Assembly (NCBI GenBank): GCA_963834815.1
Contig: CAWIDA010000009.1
Coordinates: forward strand, 414,863-478,862
DNA from: an uncultured Acidobacteriaceae bacterium
Lineage (GTDB): Bacteria; Acidobacteriota; Terriglobia; Terriglobales; Acidobacteriaceae
Length of the DNA: 64,000 bases
Reading direction: 5' to 3'
Positions 1-33,524 of the stretch are shown here, in pieces. How positions within the stretch are numbered: position 1 is the first letter of the stretch; every line of letters starts with the position of its first letter. The position numbers were made by a program, and so were the translations under genes. The notes below the pieces were generated by a model. The model was not told the origin of the DNA, did not search any database, and saw only the letters and a list, made by a program, of their open reading frames with translations.

Positions 1-300
1 CGCCCGATCAAACGACAATCGGCCACCAACTTGTCATCCTGCGGATGGAAGAGCGCCTGGATGGTTAGCGTCCTGGGCTCGTTGCGATAGAACTTGAACG
101 GCGCCAGGAAGTTCACCTCTTCAATCGACTCGACATGCCAACCGGGGTGGACACAGACGGCGGCTTCTGCGAACGCCTCAATCCCCATCACTCCGGGCAA
201 CACCGGCGTGCCGTCGATACGGTGGTCATAGAGGAACGGTTGAGCGGCGGGGTCGAGCGTTGTCTCCATGGTCAGGCCACGACTGAGACTCATGCCGGTT
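1..300 (-). other. Dehydratase (hot-dog, PKS-type) domain, N-terminal part only
   Basis: PFLYDHRIDGTPVLPGVMGIEAF matches the HxxxGxxxxP motif (His codon 224-222). The domain continues past coordinate 1. Confidence 0.8.
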
Positions 301-3300: not shown

Positions 3301-6300
3301 AGGTCCAGATCCAGGTCCAGCATGTCTCTGGGATAGCCAGTTTTCTCCACTGCCAGATCGAGAATGCGTTCTTTCACCGCGTCACCAGCGGCCGACGATG
3401 CAGAAATCGTCTCGGGTACCAGCGAGGTGAGTTTGGTGTTTTCCGGTGGCTTGGTTACCGCCACGATTGGCGGCGCTGCGACGGCAGTGTCTGTATTTGG
3501 CCGGCGCTCATTCACAAAGCGAATCACATGGGCGAGCGTGGGGTAATCGCGCAGTTTGATCTGATCGTCACGCGCAATACCGTAGGCTTCGCGGATCGTG
3601 GCGAAGACCTCTGCCTGCTTGACGGTATCGACGCCCAAGTCGGCTTCGAGGTCGAGATCGAGATCGAGCATGTCGATGGGGTAGCCGGTTTTATCGGCCA
3701 CCAGCGCCAGCACCCGATCTTTCACTGATTCGGTAGAAGAGTTTGGTTTGGGCGGCGTGGCCGGTGCAACCGGCGCGGCCGCAACCACCTGAACTTGTGG
3801 TTCAACTTTCACCTGCTCTGCCTTCGGCTGCGGTGGCGCCGGCTTTACCGCGACGACTGCTGGCTTCGACGGGGGCGGCGGCGCCTGTACTGTTTGAGTC
3901 GGCGGCGGAATCGGTTTGACATCCTTCGCTGCCCCAGCAGCAACTCCGGCAACGCGGGCGGATAGGCCTTGATCACGCACGCGCAGGGTACGATTGACGA
4001 CTTCGAGATCCGCATCTGGACGGCCCGCTATTCTGGTCAGCCATGCGTCCCATGCCGGCTGATCGGCGACGCGGTAGGCATATCCTAGAGCATCCGGTCG
4101 GCGGCGAACTCCGTCCTTGGTTGGGATCCGACGCATCAGCGCCATGCTGATCTGTGAGCCAAAGCCCGCACCCAGTCGTAAGGCGTACTCGACGGGATAG
4201 TCGCCACCCTTTGCCAGATTCAACGAACCCAGTTCCGGATCGACTTCCTTGAAGTTGGGCACAGGAGGAACCACTCCCGTTTCCAGCACTTTCACCGCCA
4301 CCACTTCCTCGATACCAGTGGCCATGGCGTGGCCGGTGAAACCCTTGGTGTTGGCGATCACGATTTGGTCGGCAGTGTTGCCGAATACGCGACGCAGCGC
4401 GTTGATCTCCGCCGATGCGCTTCCGCCTCGAGCCGGCGTGTAGGTTTCATGGGAAACGAAGACGGTGTGTGGCGCGATCTGATGACGATCAATGCCGCTA
4501 TGCGCTTCGGCTTGCGCGATCAACGTCTCCATCACCTGGCCGATGTGCTGCACATCGAGGCGAGTGCCATGGAATGCACTGTTGGCAGTCACCGCGCCGA
4601 GCACTTCACAGATGGGCTGGATTCCACGCTCACGCGCGGCTTCGGCACTCTCAACAACGAGAGCCGCCGCACCCATACCGATGATCAAGCCGTGCCGCCG
4701 ACGATCGAAGGGAGTAGCGACCTCTTCGACTGCTGCATCAGTGGCGGCTGTTCCGCTGGCCAGGAAGCCCGCGCCAAACCATCCGATCAGGTGATCGGAA
4801 GTGACATCATCGGCCGTGATGATGATGACCCGGCTGCAGCGTCCGGCGCGGATCCAGTCCTGCGCCAGGCTGACGGCATGACTAGTGGTTGAGCAGGCGG
4901 AGTTGATTTGTGTGTTGGGACCGCGAGCGCCGATGAACTCGGCGAATTGCGAGTGCCCCATCGAGAGAGTCTTGAGCAGGAAGCGGCGGTCGAAGATATA
5001 GGGGTTCTTCTCAATCTCCGCGCGCAGTTCTTCGATCTTTCGGATTATCTCCTGGGCGAGGGGCGAATGGCCGTTGGTCCCTGCCACCGCTGCGACCATT
5101 TCCTCTAAGGAGGCTAGTTGCTGGCGACGGGCGTGGTCGGCATAGTACCGAGCCATCTCATCGGCGTACGCGTCGTAACCGGGAAAGGCCGAGCCAAAAA
5201 TTACGCCGGTATCGTCGCGCAGAGCATCCGGAAGCCCCCAGCGGTCGGGCAGCTGCGTGCCCTTGCTGGTGGTCTTGTAACGCATGACCAAGGGAATTCC
5301 CGCGTCGCGCATCGCTTCAATGCCGACTCCGATGGCAAGGCGAGTGACCTGATCGAGAGCGGCCACGCGCTCGGCGGAGACGCCGAATTCCTTTACCAAA
5401 TCGAAGGCGCCACCGCGACCCGCCAGCTTGATGACATCGGCAACGTCTTCAATGGTGTCGAATCTCGCCTCTCCGCTTTCACTCTTGACCAAACGCGTGA
5501 TGCGTTTGTCGAGCATGTCACGACGAAACTGGGAAGGGATGGGTTTGATGAACTGATCGCCCCGCAGAATTCGAGCGATATTGCCATCATCGAAGATGTG
5601 GTCGGTGCCCGGCAGGCCCATGGCTGCGCCAGTGATCGCCACAGGTTCGCCGGCAGATGGACTCTTCTGTCCGTGATAGATGTCCCAGCCGCGTTCCAGA
5701 ACGTCAGCGAAGAAGCGACCGAGTTCGGAATAGCGGTCGCCACTTGATGGAACGGTAAGTGCCACGCCAGGTGCCGGCGCTGCCGCTGCGACCAGCGCGG
5801 GAGTTTTCACCGCTGGATGAGCTGCTGCCGTGGCCACAACCTCAGGTGCGGGAACGCTGCTTGCCGGCGTTGCCGGCCTCGTCTCCTGCTGGATTGCGGC
5901 TGCATCCTTCTCGCATCCGAATCCCGCGGCATACAGCCCGCACAGCGCCTGGTTGAATGCCGCCAGGTCGTTGAGCTTGGGATGATTGGTGAACAGCGAA
6001 ATCACATCACCGCGCTCGCCCAGCACCTCCTCGGCAAACCCCTGCAACGCTTTCTTGGGTCCGACTTCCACAAATACGCGGGCGCCGGCATCGTAGAGCG
6101 ACTGCAAGCCTTTCACGAACTGCACCGGAGCCGCGACCTGCTGCGCGAGCAGATCGAGCATCTGGGGAACGACGTTCGGTCCGGTTGGATAGAACTCGCC
6201 ATTCACGTTCGCGACAACCGGCACCTGTGGTGGTTGAATCTGGAGGTGCGACAGCATCTCTCGCAACGGGGCGCTGGCGGGGGCGACAATCGAGGTATGA

Positions 6301-8759
6301 AAGGCGTGGCTCACCGGCAACGGGACTACGTTGAAGCCATTCTGCAGGAATATTTCTATGGCCTGTTCGACTGCCTTGCTGGCTCCGCCGATGACCGATT
6401 GCTGCCCGCTATTGATGTTGGCGATCACAACGTAATCGTTAATCGTCTTTAGGACTCGTTCGACTTCAGCCAGCGGCGCAAAGACGGCGGCCATTTTGCC
6501 GGTGTCTTTCACCGCCACCTTGGTCATGCCGCGACCACGAGCGCTTACGGCCTGCAGGGCGTTCTCGAAGGTGAGAGAGCCTGCGGCAACCAGGGCGCCG
6601 TATTCGCCTAGGCTGTGCCCCATCGTCATGTCAGGCTTTATGCCGTAGGCAGCCAACAACCTTGTGATCGCCAGGTCGATAGTCAACACGGTCGGCTGAG
6701 TGATCTCGGTCTGGCGCAGATCTTCCTCCGCTTTGGCGACTGCTTCGGCGTCCGACGGGTCAACAAAGATGAACTGGCTAAGTGGCTTGCCCAGCAGTGG
6801 GGTCATGATCCGGTCGGCTTCCACAAAAAGATCGGCCACGATGGGCTCTGCGGCGCGAAGCGGCTCGGTCATGTTGACGTACTGCGAGCCTTGGCCGGTG
6901 TAAAGGAACGCGACCTTGGGTGCGGGACCGTGTCCGCGAAAGATACCCTGCGCGCGCAATGCCTTCCAGATCGGAGCCTGGTTGGCCTGCAATGCCTTGA
7001 GCGCCGCGGCCGATTTAGTGGCTAGCTCAGCAGCATCGGCATAGTCGATCGCCACCCGTTCGGGTGCGCGCAGATCGCTCTCGGCGGGAGCAGTCGGCGC
7101 CGGCGCGCTGCCTGCCGCAGCCGCCTTCTGGACCGCGCTCAGTCGTGCGGCCAAATCACTTTCGGTGGCAGCACCAATCACCAGGGCGCCACGTAAAGGA
7201 GCCTTGCGAGTAGACTCGCCGGAGATCGTGGGGGAAATACTGCTTGCATGCATCGTCACATCCTTCACAACATTCTTCTCAACACCGGGCGGTATTGCAG
7301 GCACTGCGATGGAGCGCTTGCCGTTCCCGTTCAGCCTTCCGGGTATGTGCTCTTCCATCACTAAGTGGAAGTTGGTGCCGCCGAAACCAAACGCGCTGAC
7401 ACCAGCGCGACGTACGCCGCCGGCGGGAATTTCCCAAGGCTTCAGTGCGGTGTTGACGTACAGGGGAGAGTGAGCGAAATCGATCTCAGGACTGGGGTGC
7501 TCGCAGTGGAGACTGGGCGGCAACACCTTGTCGCGGAGCGCGAAGGCAGCTTTGAGGATTCCTGCGGCGCCGGCGGCCCCTTTGAGATGTCCGATATTCG
7601 ACTTCACTGACCCGAGCGCCACGGACCTGACGGGTAGATTCGCGCTGCTCAACATACCGGCCATGCTCTGTGCTTCGACCACGTCGCCTACGCGGGTCGA
7701 GGTGCCGTGACCTTCAATCAGCATCGCGGGCACGGGCGAAACGCCGGCATTTTGCCAGGCGCGCTCGACGCAGAACTTCTGCCCAATGGGATTCGGCGCT
7801 GTGATCCCCTTGCCTTTGCCGTCACTCGATCCGCCGATACCGCGCACCACGGCGTAAATTTTGTCCTGGTCGCGTTCCGCATCGGCCAGACGCTTCATCA
7901 GGAAGATGGCGGCACCTTCGCCCATAACGAAGCCATCGGCGCCCTCAGCGTAGGGACGAGTGCCAGTCGCCGACAGCGCACCGATCTTGCAAAACTTCAC
8001 GAAAGTCGGCGCGCCCATGTTGCGGTCGATGCCTCCGGTGACAACGACGTCGAAATCGTTCTCGATGAGACCTTCGACAGCCGACTTGATCGCAGCCATC
8101 GCCGACGCACAAGCCGCGTCGCAGATGTAATTAGGGCCGTGAAAGTTATAGAGGTTAGCGATGCGGCCAGCCATGCAGTTGGCCAGTTCACCAGGCATCG
8201 AATCTTCGGTGATGGGAGCAATTCGCTTGCCCATGCGTTCGTGGAACTGCCTGGTTATCTCCTCGCGTAGCGACTCGGGCAACGCCGCGAAGCCGGGTGA
8301 TTCTGCGAGTTCGTGTGCATATTCGGGAAAGAACACGCGCAAAGATGTCAGGTAATGCTTCTCTCCCGCCATGGCGTTACCGAGAATCACCGCCGTGCGA
8401 TCCAGTTCGAGTGGCCGTTGGGGATAGCCGTAATCTTCCAGCGCCTCGCGCGTGCAGGCGATAGCCCACTGCTGCGCGGGGTCCATGGCATCCGCGACCC
8501 GCGGCGGTATCGGCAACTTCCATTTCATCGGGTCCCAGGCAAACTCGCGTACCCATCCGCCGATCTTCGAATAAGTTTTGTCGGGCGCGTTGGGATCGGC
8601 ATCGTAGTAAAGTGCTGGGTCCCAGCGTTCAGCCGGAACCTCAGCGATGCTGTAGCGTCCAGCCTTCACGTTTTCCCAAAATGCAGGCGCGTTCGGAGAA
8701 TCGGGCAGGATGGCTCCCACCCCCACAATGGCAATGGCTCGATGTGCGGTGTTTTCCAT
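1..8759 (-). CDS. Type I polyketide / PUFA-synthase-like megasynthase (KS-AT-KS-5x carrier-KR-DH). The N-terminus is in the window and the C-terminal end runs off the left edge (>=2919 aa visible).
   Basis: My own translation of the minus strand from ATG (8759-8757) gives MENTAHRAIAIVGVGAILPDSPNAPAFWENV... All diagnostic motifs (KS1 Cys 8111-8109, AT Ser 6614-6612, KS2 Cys 4895-4893, KR Tyr 653-651, DH His 224-222) are in one frame, with codon high coordinate = 2 mod 3. The ORF track has no minus-strand entry in that frame between 1 and 8759, as expected for an ORF with no stop inside the window. AAGGAAA lies about 8 nt upstream of the ATG. Confidence 0.92.
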   Translation of the reverse strand, partial: MENTAHRAIAIVGVGAILPDSPNAPAFWENVKAGRYSIAEVPAERWDPALYYDADPNAPDKTYSKIGGWVREFAWDPMKWKLPIPPRVADAMDPAQQWAIACTREALEDYGYPQRPLELDRTAVILGNAMAGEKHYLTSLRVFFPEYAHELAESPGFAALPESLREEITRQFHERMGKRIAPITEDSMPGELANCMAGRIANLYNFHGPNYICDAACASAMAAIKSAVEGLIENDFDVVVTGGIDRNMGAPTFVKFCKIGALSATGTRPYAEGADGFVMGEGAAIFLMKRLADAERDQDKIYAVVRGIGGSSDGKGKGITAPNPIGQKFCVERAWQNAGVSPVPAMLIEGHGTSTRVGDVVEAQSMAGMLSSANLPVRSVALGSVKSNIGHLKGAAGAAGILKAAFALRDKVLPPSLHCEHPSPEIDFAHSPLYVNTALKPWEIPAGGVRRAGVSAFGFGGTNFHLVMEEHIPGRLNGNGKRSIAVPAIPPGVEKNVVKDVTMHASSISPTISGESTRKAPLRGALVIGAATESDLAARLSAVQKAAAAGSAPAPTAPAESDLRAPERVAIDYADAAELATKSAAALKALQANQAPIWKALRAQGIFRGHGPAPKVAFLYTGQGSQYVNMTEPLRAAEPIVADLFVEADRIMTPLLGKPLSQFIFVDPSDAEAVAKAEEDLRQTEITQPTVLTIDLAITRLLAAYGIKPDMTMGHSLGEYGALVAAGSLTFENALQAVSARGRGMTKVAVKDTGKMAAVFAPLAEVERVLKTINDYVVIANINSGQQSVIGGASKAVEQAIEIFLQNGFNVVPLPVSHAFHTSIVAPASAPLREMLSHLQIQPPQVPVVANVNGEFYPTGPNVVPQMLDLLAQQVAAPVQFVKGLQSLYDAGARVFVEVGPKKALQGFAEEVLGERGDVISLFTNHPKLNDLAAFNQALCGLYAAGFGCEKDAAAIQQETRPATPASSVPAPEVVATAAAHPAVKTPALVAAAAPAPGVALTVPSSGDRYSELGRFFADVLERGWDIYHGQKSPSAGEPVAITGAAMGLPGTDHIFDDGNIARILRGDQFIKPIPSQFRRDMLDKRITRLVKSESGEARFDTIEDVADVIKLAGRGGAFDLVKEFGVSAERVAALDQVTRLAIGVGIEAMRDAGIPLVMRYKTTSKGTQLPDRWGLPDALRDDTGVIFGSAFPGYDAYADEMARYYADHARRQQLASLEEMVAAVAGTNGHSPLAQEIIRKIEELRAEIEKNPYIFDRRFLLKTLSMGHSQFAEFIGARGPNTQINSACSTTSHAVSLAQDWIRAGRCSRVIIITADDVTSDHLIGWFGAGFLASGTAATDAAVEEVATPFDRRRHGLIIGMGAAALVVESAEAARERGIQPICEVLGAVTANSAFHGTRLDVQHIGQVMETLIAQAEAHSGIDRHQIAPHTVFVSHETYTPARGGSASAEINALRRVFGNTADQIVIANTKGFTGHAMATGIEEVVAVKVLETGVVPPVPNFKEVDPELGSLNLAKGGDYPVEYALRLGAGFGSQISMALMRRIPTKDGVRRRPDALGYAYRVADQPAWDAWLTRIAGRPDADLEVVNRTLRVRDQGLSARVAGVAAGAAKDVKPIPPPTQTVQAPPPPSKPAVVAVKPAPPQPKAEQVKVEPQVQVVAAAPVAPATPPKPNSSTESVKDRVLALVADKTGYPIDMLDLDLDLEADLGVDTVKQAEVFATIREAYGIARDDQIKLRDYPTLAHVIRFVNERRPNTDTAVAAPPIVAVTKPPENTKLTSLVPETISASSAAGDAVKERILDLAVEKTGYPRDMLDLDLDLEADLGVDTVKQAEMFAAIREIYNIPRDESRKLRDYPTLAHVIRFVYESRPDLARGKSPAPQPVPMPQTVEGAATSKPAAVAEVTPVGPAPTAPPVAGTDSVKERILDLAVEKTGYPRDMLDLDLDLEADLGVDTVKQAEMFAAIREIYNIPRDENRKLRDYPTLSHVIRFVYESRPDLAQDESPAPQPVEVAAPTMPSATAELSASTALVPAAQPAAGTDAVKERILDLAVEKTGYPTDMLDLDLDLEADLGVDTVKQAEMFAAIREIYNIPRDENRKLRDYPTLAHVIRFVYESRPDLSGAAPTPTSLATPVAEAAETAATTVAASTANYDAIKEKVLEIVAEKTGYPPEMLDLDLDLEADLGIDTVKQAEMFAAVRAAYNIPREENLKLRDFPTLAHVIQFAIDKQVVTATPAASAIPTGIAAPPSVRMAQPASTPARPPRIRPVLAGFDAADRVPRRVPLPNLRPPLSICKPTGVTLGPGSRVVVMPDEGGVAKVLTQSLRNLGVEVLVLDDTRDAGVLTDLLNKWATAGSVQGVYWLAALDHEGDIGRMDLPAWREALRVRVKSLYVVMRSLFQQIAASSTFLVTATRLGGQHGYDLAGAVAPLGGAVAGFTKTFKRERADALVKVVDFEAQRDPAEIAGLLVEETRRDQGAVEIGYKNGLRWTVGLQEQSVADGESGLILDENSVFVITGAAGSIVSAITSDLAAASGGTFYLLDVVPSPDPNNPDLARFVSDKDGLKRDLFARIQARGERATPALVEKELAALERAQAAQSAIDAVQAAGGIARYVSVNLTDAAGVANVIEQVRRQSGRIDVLLHAAGLERSHFLPDKDQREFDLVFDVKSDGWFNLLHAIGDMPLGATVAFSSVAGRFGNAGQSDYSAANDLLCKITSSFRTTRPGTRGIVIDWTAWGGIGMATRGSIPKMMELAGIDMLPPEAGVPWIRRELTAGGTRGEVVVAGRLGVMLAEWDATGGLDTAALATTSEKLAAQGPMVGKLTGMSLSRGLTMETTLDPAAQPFLYDHRIDGTPVLPGVMGIEAFAEAAVCVHPGWHVESIEEVNFLAPFKFYRNEPRTLTIQALFHPQDDKLVADCRLIG
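415..1880 (-). other. Ketoreductase domain (structural plus catalytic SDR subdomains)
   Basis: Rossmann motif SVFVITGAAGSIVSAI (about 1200-1245) and catalytic GQSDYSAANDLL (Tyr codon 653-651). Confidence 0.85.
2075..3735 (-). repeat. Five tandem acyl-carrier-like domains (about 75 aa each) separated by Ala/Pro-rich linkers. Repeat period is about 336-380 nt.
   Basis: Each unit reads ..KTGYPxxMLDLDLDLEADLG(V/I)DTVKQAE(M/V)FAA(I/V)R..Y.I.R......LRD(Y/F)PTL(A/S)HVI.F. Approximate units are 3508-3735, 3155-3385, 2778-3006, 2416-2644 and 2075-2310. Units 2-4 look roughly 85-90% identical at the nucleotide level by eye. Confidence 0.9.
4125..5655 (-). other. Second ketosynthase-type domain (divergent; active-site context resembles FAS-I). 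The Cys-His-His triad is present, so it is not a CLF.
   Basis: GPNTQINSACSTTSHAVSLA (Cys at aa 1289), VFVSHETYTPARGG, IANTKGFTGHAMATG and C-terminal LRLGAGFGSQISMAL. A long helical insert (YADHARRQQLASLEEMV...IRKIEELRAEIEKNPYIFDRRFLLKTL) precedes the Cys. The comparison to FAS-I-type KS is by eye and from memory only. Confidence 0.75.
6040..6925 (-). other. Acyltransferase domain (malonyl-type motifs)
   Basis: KVAFLYTGQGSQY, GHSLGEYGAL (Ser at aa 716, codon 6614-6612) and VSHAFHTS (an HAFH-type motif, usually malonyl-specific). Confidence 0.88.
7350..8745 (-). other. Ketosynthase domain 1 (canonical PKS/FabF-like, Cys-His-His)
   Basis: Motifs ICDAACASAMAAI (Cys at aa 217), IEGHGTSTRVGD and VKSNIGHLKGAAG. 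The domain ends at VSAFGFGGTNFHLVMEE. Confidence 0.9.
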
Positions 8760-8829
8760 GATGGCATTTCCTTTTCGCGCGGGGCGGGCGCCTGTGCAGT
8801 GAGGAGAGGCAGACGCACGCCCCACGGTT

Positions 8830-10527
8830 CTAGCTATGAACAGGTACTTCCGTGAGCTGTTCCGCTTGACGTTTTTGAGCGCGGCCATACAAAACGTCGG
8901 CGACGTAATCGAGATCGGCAACCAGACCGGACTGAGCGCGGTGGATTGCCGGGAATCGCAGGGACTCCTCAAACTGCGGAACCTCTGCGTCGGTCACTCC
9001 GCCCGCGCCGACAACGCAGCGCAATCCGTCTTGCGCCACCTTCATCGCCGCCTCGCGCGCGAAGATACGGCTAATAGCTGCCAATGCGGCCGCGTCAAAG
9101 CGATCGTTGCCTTTCTCATTGAGCCGGCCTTCGGCGGAGAGTGCGGCGCGTCGAGCAAGCGTCGCAGCCGATTCGGCATAGGCGATCCACTCGCCGATGC
9201 GCAACAAAATGTGCTGGTAGCGGGTTAGCCGTCCCGCGCGGGCCTTTTCCATGATCTCTGCGAGAGCGTGCAGGGCCAGAGCCGCGACATCAGCTCCAAC
9301 GTTCGGATGGGCCGCGTGCAACAATTCCACCTGCTTCGCGCGCTCGTGATAGTGCTGTCCGCGCGTCTTCAGGTGGAGCTGCCAGCGGTCGCGGCTGATG
9401 GTCATCTCCATGATCTCGGAGGTGCCTTCGTAGATCGTGGTGATGCGCACGTCACGCTTGATCTTCTCCACCATGTACTCGTGCGTGTAGCCGTAACCGC
9501 CCAGCGCCTGGATGCTGGCTTCAGCGGCGGCATTTCCCGCCTCGGTAGACATGTACTTGGCAATCGCGCCTTCAGTGTTAAGACTTCCTTCGCCCGCATC
9601 GATGCGCTCGGCCGTTTCCTCGATAAAGGCGCGGCCCGCTTCCAGCCGGACGACGTTCGGCACGATCAGCTTGTGGGTGTAGCCTTGCTTCTCCGACAGT
9701 GGAGTTCCAGCCTGGATGCGCTTCGTGGAATACGGAATCGCACGGTCCAGCGCTGACCAGCCAGCGCCGAGCCCGAACGCGGCGACCATCAGTCGCGTGT
9801 ATCCGAACACGGCCTGGGCTTGCAGCAGCCCTTGTCCTTCCACGCCGCCTATCAGCCGGTCGGCATCGACATACGTGTCAACCAGCGACAGGGCGGCCGT
9901 ATTGCTCAGACGGATGCCGTGTTTGTTCTCCGGCTTATCGTGAGTGAAGCCTTTCGCGCCCCTCTCCACCACGAACCAACTCGGCCCGCTCGGCGTATTC
10001 GCCAGTACCGTATACAGGTCGGCAATGCCACCGTTGCTGATCCATTGCTTGCTGCCGTTGATCTTGTAGCCGACTACCTGGCCGTCCTGCAGGACGCGGT
10101 CCGCGGTGGTCTTGAGCGAGCCCAGGTCGCTGCCCGCTTCCGGCTCGGTAGCGCCGTAGGCAAACAGCACGCCTTCGTTTGCAATGCGGCTCAGCCACAA
10201 CTTCTTTTGCTCGGGGGTAGCGCCGACCGTGATCGGATCGCTGCCAAGAAAGGTGGCGAACAAAGACGTAGCGAGGCCGAGATCGATGCGGGCCATCTCT
10301 TCGCAGACGAGGTAGACGTCGAAGGTGCTTCCGCCCAGGCCGCCGTACTCCTCGGGAATGAACAGCAGTTGAATGCCGAGCTGGTCGGGGTTGCACATGT
10401 AGTGCACGATCTCCTCCGGACACTCGTCGCGCTCGTCGAGTTCGATCAGTACTTCGTCCGGCAGCCGTTTCTTGCCGAAGTCCCGCAGCGACTTCAAGCT
10501 AAGCTTTAAGGTTTTCTTGGTTATCAT
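8830..10527 (-). CDS. Acyl-CoA dehydrogenase family protein, long form with a C-terminal extension of about 170 aa
   Basis: ORF-track translation carries ACAD motifs ([27 protein letters not shown] with a catalytic Glu context). I prefer ATG 10527 (MITKKTL...) because GAGG lies about 8 nt upstream and this start does not overlap etfA. The track start at 10575 would overlap etfA by 32 nt. Confidence 0.9.
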
Positions 10528-10543
10528 TGCCAATGCCTCACTT

Positions 10544-11533
10544 TTATCGGGTCGCGTGCGCGCCCTTCGCTTCACGAACTTTGCTGGTCAATTCAGGGAT
10601 AAACTCCAGTATGTCGGCGACGATGCCCACATCCGCTACCTGAAAGATTGGCGCCTTGGGGTTCTTGTTGATGGCGACGATGAACGGACTGCCTTTGAGT
10701 CCAGCGAGATGCTGGAACGATCCGCTGATGCCGCACGCCAGGTAGATCTTCGGCTTCACCGTCTGGCCCGACGACCCAACCTGCCGCGACTTGGGCAGCC
10801 ACTTGGCATCGACCACCGGGCGCGAACAGCTCACGGCCGCGCCTAGGGCGTCAGCCAATTCCTGGGCAATCGAAACATTGTCTTGTTCCTGTATGCCGCG
10901 ACCGACGGAAACAAGGACCGGTTCCTTGGTGATGTCCACATCGCCGACTTCGGCCACGACCGTCTCCAGATAGCGTCGACCCGCTGTCAGCGCTCCGACG
11001 TCTGCCGACTTATCAACAACCACGCCATTCGCCGTCGCGGTCTCTATGGGCTTGAACGCTCCGGGACGCAGGTTGATCACCGCGCCAGCGGAAAGATCGC
11101 AGCGGACATGCGTACTCATCTGTCCGCCGAATTCCTGACGGACGACTTTGAGGAAATTTCCCTCGACCCCGTCGATGCCCATCACGTCCGAGACAAACGC
11201 AGCTCCAAGTTTCACCGACAGCCCAGGCCCCAGATCGATTCCAAAATGGTTGTGCACAACCAGTACGACGCTACCCGCTGGAACGATCTTCACCAGCGCT
11301 TTGCGAACCAGCTCGGCATTGGGATAGGCGAGACTGTCGCTCGCGATCTTCCACACCTCGGCGTAGGAGCCGCGCAGGCTGTCGCAGACCGCGTCGAGTT
11401 CGGCACCCGAGCCGGTGACAACCGCCGTCGGAGCCGCTGCGGGATCAATTTTTTTTGCCGCGGCCAACAGTTCGGCGGCGGAATCGTCAGCGACACCCTT
11501 GTGCGCGATGTAGGCAAAAATCCGGGCCGTCAT
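10544..11533 (-). CDS. etfA: Electron transfer flavoprotein subunit alpha
   Basis: The 329-aa product is typical EtfA (C-terminal FAD-binding region ...[37 protein letters not shown]). AAGGAGG lies 7 nt upstream. The ATG overlaps the etfB stop (ATGA, 11530-11533). Confidence 0.93.
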
Positions 11534-12321
11534 TGCATACCTCCTTTGGCTTTCATCAGCTCAATGAGCTTGTCGGCGATCTCTTCGTTGCTGCCCTGCA
11601 GAATCTCTGCGCCCTTGCCCAAGGCCGGCACAAAGTAGTCGTCGCGCTTCACCTTTGCGGCCGCTTCTCCGACGGAGCTTTTGTCGACGCCGAGATCGGC
11701 TGCTCCGTAGGTGGGAACTTCCAGTGACGCTGCCTGGCGGATGCCGCGCATCCCGACATAGCGCGGTTCGTTGATGCCGGTCTGGATTGAGAGCACGCAG
11801 GGGAGATCGATCTCGTTCATCTCCTTGTTGCCGCCTTCGATCTCGCGCCCGACCTTCAGCTTCTTGCCGTCGGCGACCTCGATGGAGTTCACCAGCGAGG
11901 CGAAGGGATAGTCGAGCATCGCAGCCAGCATCCCGCCTACCTGCGCGCCGCCATCTTCCGCCTGCACGCCGGTGAGGATCAGGTCGTAATTCCCTATCTG
12001 CACCAAGCCCTTCAGAATGGTTGCGATCCCTTTTCCGTCCGATCCGCTGAACACATCGTCAGAGAGCAGCACGCCATGATTCGCGCCCATGGCCAGTTCC
12101 CGCCGCAGGATTTCCTCGTCCTCTTCTGTGCCCACGGTGGCAACTGTGACGTTGCCGCCTGACTTGGCGACGATCTGCAGCGCTTCTTCGACCGCGTAGT
12201 TGTCCGGTTCATTGATCGAATACACGAGATCGTCGCGTTCAATATCGTTCCCCGCACCGTTGAGCTGAATCTCGTTCTCCGAGGTGTCGGGCACCCTTCT
12301 TGCGCAAACTAGAATCTCCAC
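11530..12321 (-). CDS. etfB: Electron transfer flavoprotein subunit beta
   Basis: The 263-aa product (MEILVCARRVPDTSENEIQL...) is typical EtfB. It has a GTG start with GGAG about 9 nt upstream. Confidence 0.92.
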   Translation of the reverse strand: MEILVCARRVPDTSENEIQLNGAGNDIERDDLVYSINEPDNYAVEEALQIVAKSGGNVTVATVGTEEDEEILRRELAMGANHGVLLSDDVFSGSDGKGIATILKGLVQIGNYDLILTGVQAEDGGAQVGGMLAAMLDYPFASLVNSIEVADGKKLKVGREIEGGNKEMNEIDLPCVLSIQTGINEPRYVGMRGIRQAASLEVPTYGAADLGVDKSSVGEAAAKVKRDDYFVPALGKGAEILQGSNEEIADKLIELMKAKGGMQ

Positions 12322-12396
12322 GTTTTCACTCCCCGAATCAGTTTTTGTGCCATCTCGAACTGCGGTACCTCACTCTGTCCATCCGCCGCCGCAGCA

Positions 12397-14517
12397 TCAC
12401 GCATGTGCTTCAGTCAATAACTCATCCTTACTGGGCATCTCCTGCGAAGTCTCACGCACCAGGTGCTGGTCCACTAGTTCCGTCAAGTCGATCGCAGTCA
12501 TCTTCCCTTCCATCCCCGAGACCTTGATCGCGTCTTCGATATTCACCATGCAGAATGGGCAGGCGGTCACGATCACATTGGCTCCGGCATCAGCGGCCAT
12601 CTGGACCCGCTTCACTCCCATCCTTTGTTCTTCTTTTGGCTCGTAGAACAGCATCAGCCCGCCACCACCGCAGCAGAACGATCGGTCGCGGCACTTGCTC
12701 ATCTCCACTCGCTGCAAGCCCGGAATGGCATCGAGCACATCACGCGGATCGTCATAAACCTGGTTGTGGCGTCCCAGATAGCAGGGGTCGTGATAGGCAT
12801 AAACGTTGTTGCTGTTCTCGACGTGATTGAGCTTGAGCTTCCCTGTCTTCACGTCGCGCGCGATCAACTGGCTGATGTGCTCCACCGGAGGCAGATCTTT
12901 GTAGTCGTGCTTCAGGGCGTTGAAGGCGTGGGGGTCGGAGGTTACGATGCGCTGTACCCCGGACGATTTGATGGCATCGATGTTGTGGTCGCGCAGCGCC
13001 ATGAAGAGCATCTCTTCGCCGAAGCGCCGGACTTCGTGGCCACTGTCTTTTTCCGCCGCGCCGAGGATTCCGTAGTTCTCGCCGGCATCGCTCAGGATTC
13101 GCGCCGTTGCCCGCCCAATCGCCTGAATACGGTCGTCATAGGAGGTGATGCTGTCGACGAAATACAAGGTCTCAGCTGCATCTTTTCCATCCAGAACTTT
13201 GACACTGCACGATTGCTGGAAGTCTTTTTCCTTGGCCCAGTCGGCTTTCTTCTTCTCCATCTTGCCGTAGGGATTGCCGCGGCTTTCGAGCGCCTTGAGC
13301 GCCTTCTGGATGGACTTCGGTACGTTTCCGTCGTCGACCATGCCACGCCGTAAATCGACGATCTTGTCGATGTACTCGATCAGCAGGGGGCACTCTTCCT
13401 CGCATGCGCCACAGGTGGTGCAGGACCAGATTTCATCCTCGTCGTAAATGCCGCCGATCAACGCATGGCTGTTGTTGGCGCCGCCAAACACGGGGAAGTG
13501 TTGGAAGCTGTAATCGCGCGCCTTGATCGTGATGAACCTGGGCGACAAAGGCCGCCCTACTGCGTTAGCCGGGCACTGATCGGAGCACCGTCCGCAGTCG
13601 GCGCAGGAATAGAAATCGAGCATGTGCTTCCAGGTAAAGTCCTCAAACTTTTTCACGCCGAACGATTTCACCTGGTCGAGACGATCGTCGCTGACGTCCC
13701 ACCGAACCGGTTTAACGGTGCCCTTGTCCAATTTCGCGAAGTACACACCGAAGAGCGAGGTCTCGACATGGAACTGGATTCCGAAGGGCCGATAGCACAG
13801 CAGGAAGTAAAAGGTCAGCGCCTGCGCAAGATAAGAGACGAGGTAGAGATTCCAAACGATCTGCGGGTTGGCAGAAATCAACGCCCGGTTCAACAACCAC
13901 GGCAGTGAGAACACGGCCAGGGACTCGACGGCATGGCCTTGCTGCGCCAGAAACGCAGTCTTGCTGGCTTCGAATACGCTCTCGGCAAACATCAGGACCG
14001 CGATGAGCGCCAACAGGAAGATGGCGTCGGCGGTATGGGCTTTGCCATAGCTGGACGGCACGGCATAGCGAGCTGGTTGGAAGATCAAACGGCGTGCAGC
14101 CGCGAAGATCATGCACAGGAAAACCACGGTGGCCGCGTAGTTCGTGATCAGGTCATACGCCCGCCTCACGCCCGAGGAGTTGACCACCATTGCGTTGGTT
14201 GAGGTGCCTAGACCGAGCAGGGCGAACGTGTGGATCGCCAGAATGATGAATCCGGTAAAAAACAGAATGTGCACGATGCCCGCCGTGCGATAGCGTGGAT
14301 GTTTCCACTGTCCAAACCAATATTGGAGGACGCGTTCCAGTCGGACCATCGGCCGATCAAAGCGAAAGTCGGGTGCGGCCTTAAGAAGCGGCATCAGCCG
14401 TCTTGCGACGATATAGGCAAAGCATGCCAGACCCAGAACATGTAGGAAAAGGAACAGAACTCGGCCTGAAACCAACCAGTAAGTCGCTTGCGACGGGGAC
14501 GGGATTGATTCCAACAT
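12397..14517 (-). CDS. Membrane-bound Fe-S oxidoreductase: an N-terminal polytopic (NarI/DsrM-like) domain fused to a 2x[4Fe-4S] plus 2x CCG (HdrD/GlpC/DsrK-like) domain. Candidate ETF:quinone oxidoreductase of the syntroph type.
   Basis: The first ~290 aa contain several hydrophobic helices. These are followed by CADCGRCSDQCP, CTTCGACEEECP, HDPCYLGRH, SFCCGGGG and TACPFCMVN. The start is ambiguous between ATG 14517 and TTG 14571. Confidence 0.85.
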   Translation of the reverse strand: MLESIPSPSQATYWLVSGRVLFLFLHVLGLACFAYIVARRLMPLLKAAPDFRFDRPMVRLERVLQYWFGQWKHPRYRTAGIVHILFFTGFIILAIHTFALLGLGTSTNAMVVNSSGVRRAYDLITNYAATVVFLCMIFAAARRLIFQPARYAVPSSYGKAHTADAIFLLALIAVLMFAESVFEASKTAFLAQQGHAVESLAVFSLPWLLNRALISANPQIVWNLYLVSYLAQALTFYFLLCYRPFGIQFHVETSLFGVYFAKLDKGTVKPVRWDVSDDRLDQVKSFGVKKFEDFTWKHMLDFYSCADCGRCSDQCPANAVGRPLSPRFITIKARDYSFQHFPVFGGANNSHALIGGIYDEDEIWSCTTCGACEEECPLLIEYIDKIVDLRRGMVDDGNVPKSIQKALKALESRGNPYGKMEKKKADWAKEKDFQQSCSVKVLDGKDAAETLYFVDSITSYDDRIQAIGRATARILSDAGENYGILGAAEKDSGHEVRRFGEEMLFMALRDHNIDAIKSSGVQRIVTSDPHAFNALKHDYKDLPPVEHISQLIARDVKTGKLKLNHVENSNNVYAYHDPCYLGRHNQVYDDPRDVLDAIPGLQRVEMSKCRDRSFCCGGGGLMLFYEPKEEQRMGVKRVQMAADAGANVIVTACPFCMVNIEDAIKVSGMEGKMTAIDLTELVDQHLVRETSQEMPSKDELLTEAHA

Positions 14518-15130
14518 GACTCTCGGAATCTCCAAGTTGTGCCTACGCAGATTGGGTGCGCAGGATTGCAAAGTTCAGGGCTGCTTGCTGTCGTGTTCGT
14601 CCCATCCACCGAAGCGAATGGTCTCGGCAAGAGCCCGCCTGGACGAGCGATACCTGGTGGCAATTACATGGAGATTCCACTCGCATCTCGCCGGTACAGG
14701 ACGAGGAACGTGAAGCTGAATGCCGGTTGCCTACCGGGGATATGCACTGCCTCTACACTCGGCAGCACCCAGTGGGTGCCGTCGCGATTCCTACTAGACG
14801 TGGCGCCTGGGAGGCCGGGTGGAATCGTGCCCGACTGACTGTTTCAGATTATGTTCTGCCGCGGGCGGGCGGTCTGTGAGACCCATCACACGTTAGTAGT
14901 ACGGGGCGCACTCCACGTTCGTAGCAGCATCACGTACCGGCTGGTAATGCCAGACAGTTGCAAGTAATGGAAACTGTCTAACCTATGCAGATGCTCTTGG
15001 CTCGCTACATTGGAGGGTTGCGGATGAGGTTGATAAAGCGGGTTCAAACCGAACCGAACATCACGCCAAACAGCGCCAGGAGAGCGTTCCGGGGAAACCG
15101 CGGTTAGTCTTGAGTAAACGTGGATGCGGT

Positions 15131-15517
15131 CTATGCGTAGTCGATTGGATGGCGCTCGAGCCAGTATTCGTCCCGCGCAACTCCCATCTTCTTTGCTGCG
15201 GCATGCGCCATGCTCGCAGTAAGCTCGCGCGTTTCCCAGGTAAATCCTGCCAGGAATCCAACCGCGCTGCCAACCACCCCCAGGGCGAGGCTCTCCGGTA
15301 CGCGACGACGGCGGTTGGACAAAAGAAGTTGCACCAGACCCGCACACGCTCCAATAGCCGCCAGCCCTATCGACGCACGCGCCTTCTGCGTCAGAACCGG
15401 ACCGAGAGACCTGCCGTCCAGGTAAGTGTCGCGACCGCTGCGCAATCCGGATGCGCCCGAATTGGCGAGTGACCGACCATAACGCAAGTAGCTCTCAAGC
15501 GCTCGATCCGTATGCAT
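15131..15517 (-). CDS. Small hypothetical membrane protein (128 aa, two predicted TM helices)
   Basis: AGGAG lies about 9 nt upstream of ATG 15517. Hydrophobic segments are SIGLAAIGACAGLVQLLL and LALGVVGSAVGFLAGFTW. I recognise no family. Confidence 0.5.
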   Translation of the reverse strand: MHTDRALESYLRYGRSLANSGASGLRSGRDTYLDGRSLGPVLTQKARASIGLAAIGACAGLVQLLLSNRRRRVPESLALGVVGSAVGFLAGFTWETRELTASMAHAAAKKMGVARDEYWLERHPIDYA

Positions 15518-15895
15518 GACTTCAACTCCTGCGAAGCTGCCTTTGCGACCCCCGCGGCAACTCTGTCTTTGATTATTACATCCGGCCTAATCATCCGAGG
15601 ATGTGACGAGCCGCACTGAGGTTGGTGATGGCTGCGACTAGGCCGCGAGCGTCTTGCCGTTCCCTTCTGCGTCGCCGATGAGTCTGCCGGCGGTAGCTCC
15701 CATTGTCACCACCACGACGGAAATAACATCGGGATTGTGACGCCTCTCACAGCACAGGTTGTCAAATCATGGGATTTTAGTATCGTCGGCCGGGCCGAGA
15801 TAGGCGTTGATCCGTTGCCCGCGGATTGGCTCTTTTCATGGATGCTCCATATCGAGCAGGCACAGCCGTCGGTCAGGCAAAGCAGGGGGAACGCC

Positions 15896-17557
15896 ATGTC
15901 GCAAGCTAGCCGGGTTGATTCACTTTCGTGGGGAGACACGTTCTTCCTGTTCATCGAGCGTGAGGGACAGCCACTGAACATCGCCTCCACTTGCGAGTTC
16001 GAGGGCGTAATTTCGCTGCAAGCGTTCAGAAAGTTTGTTGAGTCGAAGCTGGGCCTGATCCCGCGATACAAACAACGTGCGGTATTTCCGGCCTTCAACA
16101 TCAGTCTTCCAACCTGGGAGTTCGACCCGAACTTTGACATACGAAATCATGTTAATCAGGTCGTTCTCAAGGGTGGAACGGACAGCGATCTTAAAGAAAT
16201 CGCTGCCAGGATCATCAGCGAGCCACTGGACCGGCGTCGGCCGCTGTGGGACCTCACCCTGGTACGCGGTCTTAAGGGAAATCGAACAGGCTTGGTGTTC
16301 CGCATCCATCACTGCATGGCAGATGGGATATCCGGCGTCGGAATCATGAACGTCCTGTTGGACACGAGCCCGACTCCGCAAAAGCTGGCGGCGAAAAAGT
16401 CGGGCTCGGAAGAGCCGCGGCCGACCGACTCAGTTGCCTTGCTCCTCGATCAAGTGCTCCAGTCGTACCAGGCGTTCATGCAAGGGGCTGTAACGGCGCA
16501 AGCCGAAGTGGTGAATATCGTACGGGAGCTGCTCGCAGGCGCCACCAACGGCCACACGGACGACATTATTCATTTGGTGCCGGAACTTGGTACGCCCTCA
16601 CAGCGCCTGCCCTTCAACAAGGTATGCCGTGGTCCGCAAAGGATTGCGTGGGGCGAAATGCGAATGGCAGAAATTAAGGCCATTCGCGAGAGTTGCGGGG
16701 GCACGGTGAACGACGTGGTGCTCACCGTCATCACCTCGACGATTCGGCGCTACGCAGAATTGCACGGCGTGAAGGTCAGAGGACGGCATTTGAGGATTAT
16801 CGTTCCAGTAAACCTCCGCGGTAACGGCGACATCGGCGAATTGGGAAACCGCATTACGTTCTTGCCGATTAATGTGCCGCTCGACGTCCGCGACTCCCGT
16901 GCACTGCTAGCGCGAGTCAGTGAACGCATGGTCTTTCTCAGGAGCGTCGGAGTAGCGGACCTGGTCGGTCTGGTGGGTACACTGGTGTCGAAGATTCCGC
17001 TTCCCGCCCAAGCGGTCCTGGCACCATTGGCCACCCAGTTGCCGCTTAGCCTAAGCAACATGATCTGCACCAATGTTCCCGGCCCGCAGCTCCCGCTGTA
17101 CCTCCTCGGACATAAGATGTTGCGCTGCTACCCGTATGTCCCAATCGGCGGCGAGATGGGGGTGAATGTCGCGATTCTCAGTTATGACGGCGTCGCCTAC
17201 GTTGGGTTCGGGGGTGATATTCACGCCGTGCCCGATATCGATTGCCTTGAAGACCTCCTTCGCTCAAGCTTCACGGATTTACGGGAAGCCGCAACCGAAA
17301 AATCTGCCCCGACCAGCCGTGCTGCTGCCAGGTCAAAAGTCGAGGCTGCCACGCGGCGGGTGAAACTGCGGACGATCGCGATTTCGCCAGCAGCAAAGCC
17401 AGCGCGGAAGAAAGTACAGGCTGCCGAACCGGCGTCAAAGCAACCAACGCGTCAGACCTTGGCGACGAAACCGGCGGATCTCGTCCTACCAAAAATTAAG
17501 TCGGTTCCCGCAGCCGTGACCGTCCCGGAAACGGTGCTGTCGCAAGCGGGCGACTGA
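15896..17557 (+). CDS. Wax ester synthase / diacylglycerol acyltransferase (WS/DGAT) family protein with a basic Ala/Lys/Pro-rich C-terminal tail of about 95 aa
   Basis: Catalytic motif HHCMADGISG (HHxxxDG). I prefer ATG 15896 (AGGGGGA 5 nt upstream, MSQASRVDSLSWGDTFFL...) over the track GTG at 15737. The tail is ...SRAAARSKVEAATRRVKLRT..AAKPARKKVQAAEPASKQP... Confidence 0.88.
   Translation: MSQASRVDSLSWGDTFFLFIEREGQPLNIASTCEFEGVISLQAFRKFVESKLGLIPRYKQRAVFPAFNISLPTWEFDPNFDIRNHVNQVVLKGGTDSDLKEIAARIISEPLDRRRPLWDLTLVRGLKGNRTGLVFRIHHCMADGISGVGIMNVLLDTSPTPQKLAAKKSGSEEPRPTDSVALLLDQVLQSYQAFMQGAVTAQAEVVNIVRELLAGATNGHTDDIIHLVPELGTPSQRLPFNKVCRGPQRIAWGEMRMAEIKAIRESCGGTVNDVVLTVITSTIRRYAELHGVKVRGRHLRIIVPVNLRGNGDIGELGNRITFLPINVPLDVRDSRALLARVSERMVFLRSVGVADLVGLVGTLVSKIPLPAQAVLAPLATQLPLSLSNMICTNVPGPQLPLYLLGHKMLRCYPYVPIGGEMGVNVAILSYDGVAYVGFGGDIHAVPDIDCLEDLLRSSFTDLREAATEKSAPTSRAAARSKVEAATRRVKLRTIAISPAAKPARKKVQAAEPASKQPTRQTLATKPADLVLPKIKSVPAAVTVPETVLSQAGD

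Positions 17558-30748: not shown

Positions 30749-33524
<2,776 letters not shown>

Follow-up and report, generated by a model that had tools for sequence, protein, structure and literature searches.

The stretch of DNA analysed here (64,000 nt, hereafter the window) comes from an uncultured Acidobacteriaceae bacterium of the Terriglobia (contig CAWIDA010000009.1 of assembly GCA_963834815.1, forward-strand positions 414,863 to 478,862). Its minus strand carries genes for a membrane Fe-S oxidoreductase of the electron transfer flavoprotein (ETF):menaquinone oxidoreductase type (EMO, also EtfD), for both ETF subunits and for a long-form acyl-CoA dehydrogenase (ACAD), which lead directly into the gene for a PfaA-like lipid megasynthase of Type R without an enoyl reductase (ER) of its own. 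Comparison of related loci shows that the ACAD is a dedicated partner of the synthase and that, in Terriglobia, there is a private route between this ACAD and the quinone pool. We put at about even the chance that the ACAD serves as the trans enoyl reductase of the synthase, fed by menaquinol via EMO and ETF. What points to this role is a partner that lacks an ER, the strict pairing of the two genes, and the presence of other reductases (NMO or OYE types) in the same position in related synthases.

A conserved gene block, probably an operon

All five genes lie on the minus strand, in the order EMO (12397–14517, 706 aa), etfB (11530–12321, 263 aa), etfA (10544–11533, 329 aa, with a 4-nt ATGA overlap with etfB), ACAD (8830–10527, 565 aa) and synthase (1–8759, with its ATG at 8759; the window holds the first 2919 of its 3109 residues). 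EMO and etfB are separated by 75 nt (12322–12396), etfA and the ACAD gene by 16 nt, and the ACAD and synthase genes by 70 nt (8760–8829). The gene identities, order and gaps given in an earlier sequence-only reading of the window agree to the base with the list of open reading frames (ORFs), with Pfam and with the genes called on the contig, a metagenome contig of 1.18 Mb. Beyond the left edge of the window, the synthase is followed by a single-chain, eukaryote-like acetyl-CoA carboxylase (ACC, 1867 aa) and then by a Sfp-type phosphopantetheinyl transferase (PPTase). The best explanation of the whole run is that EMO, EtfB, EtfA, ACAD, Type R synthase, single-chain ACC and PPTase form one biosynthetic operon of Terriglobia.

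The EMO protein was used to scan a set of genomes with one member for each species, which recovered at least 592 relatives (592 of the 599 pattern-matched stretches encode one, which is a lower bound). Among the matches listed, 80 loci at 71–78% identity, 67 genome loci extend far enough downstream, and in 66 of these EMO-EtfB-EtfA-ACAD-synthase was colinear, with ACAD/synthase gaps of 13–566 nt, mostly below 120 nt. The same block was present at three synthase homologues that were looked up, one of them on a contig labelled Binatia; the synthase homologues that bear names belong to metagenome-assembled genomes (MAGs) of Terriglobales, Korobacteraceae and Sulfotelmatobacter. A second scan, of metagenomes with an ACAD alignment, gave 80 loci, 71 of them informative for the downstream gene, and in all 71 the synthase lay directly downstream of the ACAD orthologue. 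The arrangement is not due to chance, as both counts (66/67 and 71/71) lie far beyond it, and the gene-neighbourhood survey that the sequence-only reading had proposed as a check on the link between the two modules finds them strongly associated. The genome locus that departs from the pattern (L027, 15863–21688) has EMO-EtfBA-ACAD without a synthase; behind its ACAD come genes for an ECF sigma factor with a zf-HC2 anti-sigma factor, for TPR proteins and for a signal peptidase. Either a rearrangement or a misassembly could account for this locus.

The metagenome loci form two groups. In a Terriglobia-like group, with ACADs at least 75% identical to that of the window, the synthase was downstream in 53/53 loci and Etf upstream in 49/49; in a more distant group, with ACADs 66–71% identical, the synthase was downstream in 18/18 and Etf upstream in 0/17. 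Since the distant group keeps ACAD and synthase together with no Etf or EMO nearby, this pair is the conserved core, and on the same comparison Etf and EMO would have joined the operon in Terriglobia. In five distant loci (L098, L099, L106, L131 at 8882–9949, and L138), a FabH-like KAS III gene stands directly upstream of the ACAD and may provide a dedicated starter supply.

These counts also bear on the view that EMO-EtfBA-ACAD is a general β-oxidation electron module that became fixed beside a lipid synthase in Terriglobia. All fatty-acid-using menaquinone organisms are reported to have EMO, often in a single copy (bioRxiv 10.64898/2026.08.18.745454), and it is in keeping with such a view that the clusters of the distant group have neither Etf nor EMO genes. 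However, the ACAD stays with the synthase not only in the 71 metagenome loci but also in 3/3 ACAD-bearing representatives of a wider search described below, at synthase identities down to 41%; the identities of ACAD and synthase co-vary between loci, pointing to correlated divergence (rho 0.60, n=35, uncorrected for phylogeny); and the EMO of the window is derived, with one of its cysteine cluster motifs gone. We regard a housekeeping neighbour as very improbable.

The suggestion of a possible single operon gains support from the spacing of the genes, from their colinear conservation and from transcript assemblies. No RNA run of the source organism was found, and the one soil metatranscriptome that was located holds relatives only (~80–90% identical). 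At least three of its assembled contigs carry pieces from the 3' end of an ACAD gene as well as from the 5' end of a synthase gene, which, DNA carry-over being possible, is weakly consistent with co-transcription across this junction. The 75-nt gap between EMO and etfB forms no stable structure (−15.4 kcal/mol, z=+1.9). The 70-nt gap holds a GC hairpin without a U tract, whose stability (−31 kcal/mol, z=−1.6) is not beyond that of shuffled sequence, and an AAGGAAA motif 9 nt before the synthase ATG. No terminator-like site scored in either gap, including the interval from 8760 to 8829 in which a terminator had been named beforehand as a sign against the link. Scans for sigma-70 promoters and intrinsic terminators gave nothing in the gaps, with overall counts at shuffle level, and FNR-type boxes (TTGAT-N4-ATCAA) were no more frequent than by chance, with none upstream of the operon.

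The synthase and the reductases of its relatives

The synthase passes the NCBIfam model for PfaA (TIGR02813) with 1047.7 bits against a cut-off of 1010.1. Its domain order is ketosynthase (KS; motifs DAACAS, HGTST and NIGH), acyltransferase (AT; GHSLG), a second KS-like domain (KS2; NSACST), five carrier domains, ketoreductase (KR) and PS-DH, with an intact dehydratase (DH) motif HxxxGxxxxP (HRIDGTPVLP). KS2 retains its active-site Cys and is therefore not a classical chain-length factor (CLF). The five tandem carrier domains (2075–3735 in the window; residues 1709, 1825, 1951, 2072 and 2184) all read G[VI]DTV, so that Thr replaces the expected phosphopantetheinyl Ser in 5/5. A domain search found no ER domain in the full 3109-aa protein; pfaB, pfaC and pfaD were absent within 10 kb on either side, and no other ER gene was found in the 10 kb downstream. 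The ER domain or gene that the sequence-only reading had thought might lie beyond the left edge of the window is accordingly found neither in the complete synthase nor within 10 kb.

This gene set differs from that of a canonical Pfa (polyunsaturated fatty acid) synthase, in which pfaA is accompanied by pfaB, pfaC and pfaD. The two systems are alike in having a PfaA-type multi-ACP (acyl carrier protein) subunit, and in an ER function that is supplied in trans by PfaD there and may be so here. PfaD is an NMO/FMN enzyme, whereas the candidate reductase here is an ACAD, and pfaC, which has the domain order KS-CLF-2xFabA-DH and so encodes the FabA-type dehydratase/isomerase, is missing here along with pfaB and pfaD. 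With one pfaA homologue, a PPTase downstream and no pfaBCD within 10 kb, the cluster instead belongs to Type R. This secondary lipid synthase class was defined by Shulse & Allen 2011 (PMC3098273) as KS-MAT-CLF-ACP(3-6)-KR plus a PPTase, with Ca. Koribacter, Ca. Solibacter, Elusimicrobium and Roseiflexus as holders; Koribacter has an ACC gene between those for the synthase and the PPTase, and so has the cluster described here. The window's synthase departs from that definition in its C-terminal PS-DH and in the Cys kept by KS2. The defining paper gives no product for the class and makes no mention of an ACAD, EtfAB or an Fe-S oxidoreductase.

To sample the wider family, the KS2 region was searched without a profile against 1.84 billion representatives, and 724 clusters (50% identity) matched at E≤1e-30. 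An N-terminal extension was present in 24 of the 72 family representatives with an intact N-terminus. By an ad hoc hidden Markov model 20 of these 24 extensions were NMO-like, and Pfam PF03060 was confirmed in four of six tested. NMO is the fold of the enoyl reductases PfaD and FabK. Gene contexts were sampled at seven representatives. Three of them have a long ACAD directly upstream (P0146, P0127 and P0188, with KS2-region identities of 48, 47 and 41%), and one of these three ACADs matches that of the window along its whole length at 65% identity. An OYE ene-reductase gene lies directly upstream of P0154 (43%); P0263 (36%) has two fused NMO domains and no ACAD nearby; P0172 (39%) and P0161 (42%) have no adjacent reductase. 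In this small sample, the slot 5' of the first KS holds a fused ER-type domain, an ene-reductase gene or an ACAD, as would be expected if all of them supplied the same step. In many distant members a PPTase is fused to the C-terminus of the synthase (P0151, P0161, P0185 and ~35 others).

Three options had been left standing for the ACAD: action on the synthase product or on a carrier-bound intermediate, a surrogate for a trans enoyl reductase, or a coincidental β-oxidation neighbour. The second gains most from the present results, because NMO and OYE reductases occupy the same 5' position in relatives and because an ER-less synthase would offer no saturated α-β bond to oxidise. Coincidence is now unlikely, since the ACAD-synthase pair is kept in every informative locus, including the distant group without Etf and EMO, and further β-oxidation genes are missing from the operon and from the window proteins scanned. 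Among the 30 predicted window proteins run against Pfam, none is an enoyl-CoA hydratase, a 3-hydroxyacyl-CoA dehydrogenase, a thiolase or an ER.

Electron carriers and the direction of electron flow

The ACAD (Pfam Acyl-CoA_dh N/M/1) has its catalytic Glu in the motif YEG at positions 366–368. Its AlphaFold 2 model (pLDDT 87) has helices through 391–559, and Foldseek matched it over its full length to 3OWA, 7S7G, 2UXW, 3B96 and 2Z1Q (TM 0.74–0.77); these include B. anthracis 3OWA, human VLCAD (very-long-chain acyl-CoA dehydrogenase) and T. thermophilus 2Z1Q at TM ~0.75. Judged by the model, the enzyme is of VLCAD type, with core, catalytic Glu and a C-terminal helical domain of ~170 aa, and by sequence its core is closest to Bcd/MCAD-type enzymes. 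Prolyl-ACP dehydrogenase 4IRN is also among its PDB matches.

EtfB (Pfam ETF) has the AMP-binding M. methylotrophus ETF 1O94_C as its best PDB match, and EtfA (Pfam ETF and ETF_alpha) matches 5OL2_A and 1O94_D. The best PDB matches gave no answer as to the class of the Etf: AMP-binding 1O94 and bifurcating 6FAH, 5OL2 and 4KPU score alike. As these scores do not discriminate, the zipper signature of EtfB was used instead, on an alignment with 1O94_C, 6FAH_B and 4KPU_B. Bifurcating (group 2) EtfBs have the zipper DGDTAQ, with a Thr that is 100% conserved, and canonical group 1 EtfBs have DDDSNQ (PMC8958531). The loop found here, EDGGAQ, is one residue shorter in the alignment and lacks the Thr of the bifurcating type, and this form is kept in the EtfBs of related loci. 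By its zipper, the Etf is therefore not of the bifurcating type, which was the distinction that the sequence-only reading had wanted drawn; the loop also differs from the canonical group 1 zipper.

Reductive use of such proteins has clostridial precedents. In Bcd-EtfAB, CarCDE and the acryloyl-CoA reductase, an ACAD-family enzyme acts with EtfAB reductively on enoyl-CoA, and an acryloyl-CoA reductase subunit is the top NCBIfam match for the ACAD and EtfA of the window and the second for EtfB, all far below the cut-offs. Unlike those systems, the present one has an EtfB without DGDTAQ, no ferredoxin domain, a VLCAD-type C-terminal domain on the ACAD and, as the partner of its Etf, a membrane quinone oxidoreductase.

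That oxidoreductase (Pfam CCG and Fer4) is homologous over its full length to M. smegmatis EtfD/EMO (PDB 9OJN_A, E=6.1e-91), with aligned stretches 61–347 and 355–682 covering the membrane and cytoplasmic parts. It has the EMO architecture of a NarI-like membrane domain followed by HdrC-like and HdrB-like cytoplasmic domains, and its gene stays next to etfBA in every locus that extends far enough. In menaquinone organisms that use fatty acids, EMO serves as the ETF:(methyl)menaquinone oxidoreductase (bioRxiv 10.64898/2026.08.18.745454). The protein of the window shares the NarI-like domain, two cubane clusters, the HdrB-like domain and adjacent etfBA with both 9OJN and the S. aciditrophicus EMO (SaEMO), the latter having the same length of 706 aa; it differs from them in its single Cys-complete non-cubane motif, in its set of no more than three invariant membrane His and in a genomic setting of biosynthesis instead of β-oxidation.

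Both cubane [4Fe-4S] motifs CxxCxxCxxxC (C305/308/311/315 and C366/369/372/376) are conserved without exception across 78 orthologues. Of the two CCG motifs claimed in the sequence-only reading, only one is cysteine-complete (C579, C615/C616, C653 and C656), and Pfam reports one CCG stretch. In the first HdrB-like half (residues ~440–575), S, S, S and A stand at the four distal-cluster cysteines of 9OJN, and the same holds in the 78 orthologues. With these four cysteines lost throughout, the EMOs of this group probably carry one non-cubane cluster, not two; the distal cluster is known to vary between EMOs (bioRxiv 10.64898/2026.08.18.745454).

In the membrane part, only H83, H161 and H250 are invariant among the 78 orthologues, and all three align with His residues of the mono-heme mycobacterial enzyme (MsEMO). 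The mycobacterial EMO has one heme and the Syntrophus EMO three (bioRxiv 10.64898/2026.08.18.745454). The invariant His pattern points to an EMO that may be a non-electrogenic, reversible link. The earlier comparison with the electron module of syntrophic fatty-acid oxidisers holds at the level of the EMO family, but the conserved histidines bring the protein nearer to mycobacterial EtfD.

From these parts we propose the following mechanism. The KS-AT-KS2-ACP5-KR-DH synthase would make a 2-enoyl thioester in each elongation round and, having no ER, would depend on the ACAD for its reduction. Electrons would pass from menaquinol to the membrane EMO, on to ETF, to the flavin of the ACAD and to the enoyl thioester, which is the β-oxidation path reversed. 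The acyl chain that results would be long and for the most part saturated. We infer the direction of electron flow, the binding of the substrate to ACP or to CoA, and the product. A biosynthetic context, with ACC and PPTase in the operon and so a predicted malonyl-CoA supply of its own, argues for this reading. The quinone of the source organism is presumably menaquinone, as generally in Acidobacteria.

The same genes would also allow the opposite direction, in which the ACAD would put a double bond (α,β or γ,δ) into the starter, into an intermediate on its carrier or into the product once released, and electrons would run through ETF and EMO to menaquinone. ACAD-ETF-EMO chains usually run in this direction (bioRxiv 10.64898/2026.08.18.745454); some members of the ACAD family, such as prolyl-ACP dehydrogenase 4IRN, act on substrates bound to a carrier; and the strict ACAD-synthase pairing fits oxidative tailoring equally well. 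However, an ER-less KS-KR-DH cycle leaves a 2-enoyl group, so that a saturated α-β bond would be present for the ACAD to oxidise only if another ER had acted first, and what sister synthases carry in the same position is an ER-type NMO or an OYE gene, not a desaturase. Further to that, with menaquinone at ~−74 mV and enoyl/acyl-CoA at ~−10 mV (potentials quoted in bioRxiv 10.64898/2026.08.18.745454), the reductive direction would be slightly downhill and oxidation uphill by ~60 mV. Oxidative tailoring therefore seems to us unlikely.

A chain running in the reductive direction is known elsewhere. In S. aciditrophicus, EMO and ETF take part in enoyl-CoA respiration, and the EMO-ETF-ACAD chain also works reductively (bioRxiv 10.64898/2026.08.18.745454). 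In the wax-ester fermentation of Euglena, ACAD and ETF with rhodoquinone reduce enoyl-CoA (PMC6587861), and in the 2-methyl-branched enoyl-CoA reductase system of Ascaris the same chain runs reductively (cited in PMC6587861). What the present system would share with these precedents is a low-potential quinol that feeds ETF and an ACAD working as enoyl-CoA reductase, and wax esters as sink. The likeness extends to genes here, as a wax-ester/triacylglycerol synthase (WS/DGAT) adjoins the operon and, in many relatives, an AdhE-like reductase does so too. Those systems differ in being reversed β-oxidation on CoA esters, mitochondrial and dependent on rhodoquinone, whereas here elongation would be by a malonyl-dependent megasynthase, and menaquinone is presumed.

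Several points weigh against an ACAD acting as trans enoyl reductase. Two sampled ER-less relatives (P0172 and P0161) have neither an ACAD nor another reductase beside them, so that a reductase encoded elsewhere (e.g. FabI of type II fatty acid synthesis, FAS II) can evidently serve, or else the product is unsaturated; and the argument from NMO and OYE in the same slot draws on few sampled contexts. At L027, EMO, Etf and ACAD stand with no synthase downstream. The direction in which an ACAD works is not readable from its sequence, and EMO with ETF is the ordinary β-oxidation route in menaquinone organisms (bioRxiv 10.64898/2026.08.18.745454); the operon's EMO and ETF may be the only copy in the cell and serve β-oxidation as well. 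Finally, the Thr of the carrier domains may mean that the chemistry of the synthase is unusual in ways that undermine the analogies.

Neutral-lipid genes beside the operon

In the window, the operon is preceded on the same strand by a conserved 128-aa ORF (15131–15517), a called gene without family match whose relatives, at 41–75% identity, lie upstream in many loci. Next comes a WS/DGAT gene on the plus strand, divergent from the operon (15737–17557; Pfam WS_DGAT_cat and WS_DGAT_C), and after it a patatin lipase gene. In 44 of 82 related loci, a WS/DGAT gene is co-directional with EMO and immediately upstream of it, and in 43 of those 44 it is itself preceded by genes for a STAS protein and an AdhE-like aldehyde/alcohol dehydrogenase of 888 aa. 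This run of AdhE-like (81–95% identical among loci), STAS (91 aa) and WS/DGAT genes, co-directional with EMO and absent from the window, lies at ~5.6–9.9 kb in L013, L016, L022 and ~40 other loci, and at 1–4365 in L004. Two contigs of MAG CAVTNF01 (L022 and L029) each hold a complete WS/DGAT-EMO-EtfBA-ACAD-synthase block, with EMOs 74% and 73% identical to that of the window; either the block is truly duplicated or the bin is mixed.

Genes for storing and mobilising neutral lipid suggest yet another role, in which ACAD, ETF and EMO would be the first chain-length-specific step in degrading the lipid of the synthase, co-regulated with its synthesis. Storage-polymer synthases and depolymerases are often co-regulated. 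The modelled VLCAD-like architecture of the ACAD would suit long chains, WS/DGAT and the patatin lipase adjoin, and EMO is the β-oxidation electron outlet in menaquinone bacteria (bioRxiv 10.64898/2026.08.18.745454). However, in the Pfam-annotated contexts no hydratase, 3-hydroxyacyl-CoA dehydrogenase or thiolase stands beside the pair, the sole exception being L088, where a β-oxidation set lies 6–10 kb upstream and the paired ACAD is missing. The gaps to the synthase are short (mostly 13–120 nt) and transcripts bridge the junction, and synthesis and breakdown on one transcript would amount to a futile cycle. We hold such dedicated turnover to be quite unlikely; the probability left over from all these readings we assign to roles that we have not thought of.

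If the ACAD acts as trans enoyl reductase, the acyl chain would in many relatives probably go on to wax esters or another neutral lipid through the AdhE-like reductase and WS/DGAT. A bolder proposal, which we rate as improbable, is that wax-ester fermentation has a bacterial counterpart in Terriglobia, which they would use under oxygen shortage, with enoyl reduction as a form of anaerobic respiration. The operon AdhE-like-STAS-WS/DGAT-EMO-EtfBA-ACAD-synthase-ACC-PPTase of many species would then yield a neutral lipid that is both electron sink and carbon store, and the synthase would be the first fatty-acid/polyketide synthase found to be wired to the quinone pool, not to NAD(P)H.

Literature searches for a link of ACAD or ETF to Type R synthases found no paper describing an ACAD/ETF/EMO partner. 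The Type R class and EMO were already known; the literature searched describes neither their fixed partnership nor a megasynthase whose trans ER is an ACAD driven by quinol. Few uncharacterised lipid megasynthases are as widespread as those of Type R, and since 2011 the question has stood of how a synthase without ER makes lipid. An answer would be a dedicated ACAD that draws on the quinone pool, which would represent a new coupling of lipid synthesis to the respiratory chain. Such an ACAD would also offer a plausible electron sink and storage route for soil Acidobacteria, which are dominant in peat and acid soils with fluctuating oxygen.

Two further observations concern the surroundings of the operon. 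On the contig of the window, beyond its left edge, a second long ACAD, of AidB type (548 aa; L002, 25834–27480), lies on the opposite strand, tail-to-tail with the PPTase; in L003 and L004, the two relatives whose DNA downstream can be compared, no such gene was seen there. In its right half the window holds no lipid genes and encodes glycoside hydrolases, TPR proteins, a TonB-type receptor and FG-GAP/ASPIC proteins, along with a KatG-like catalase-peroxidase of 748 aa at 30749–32995.

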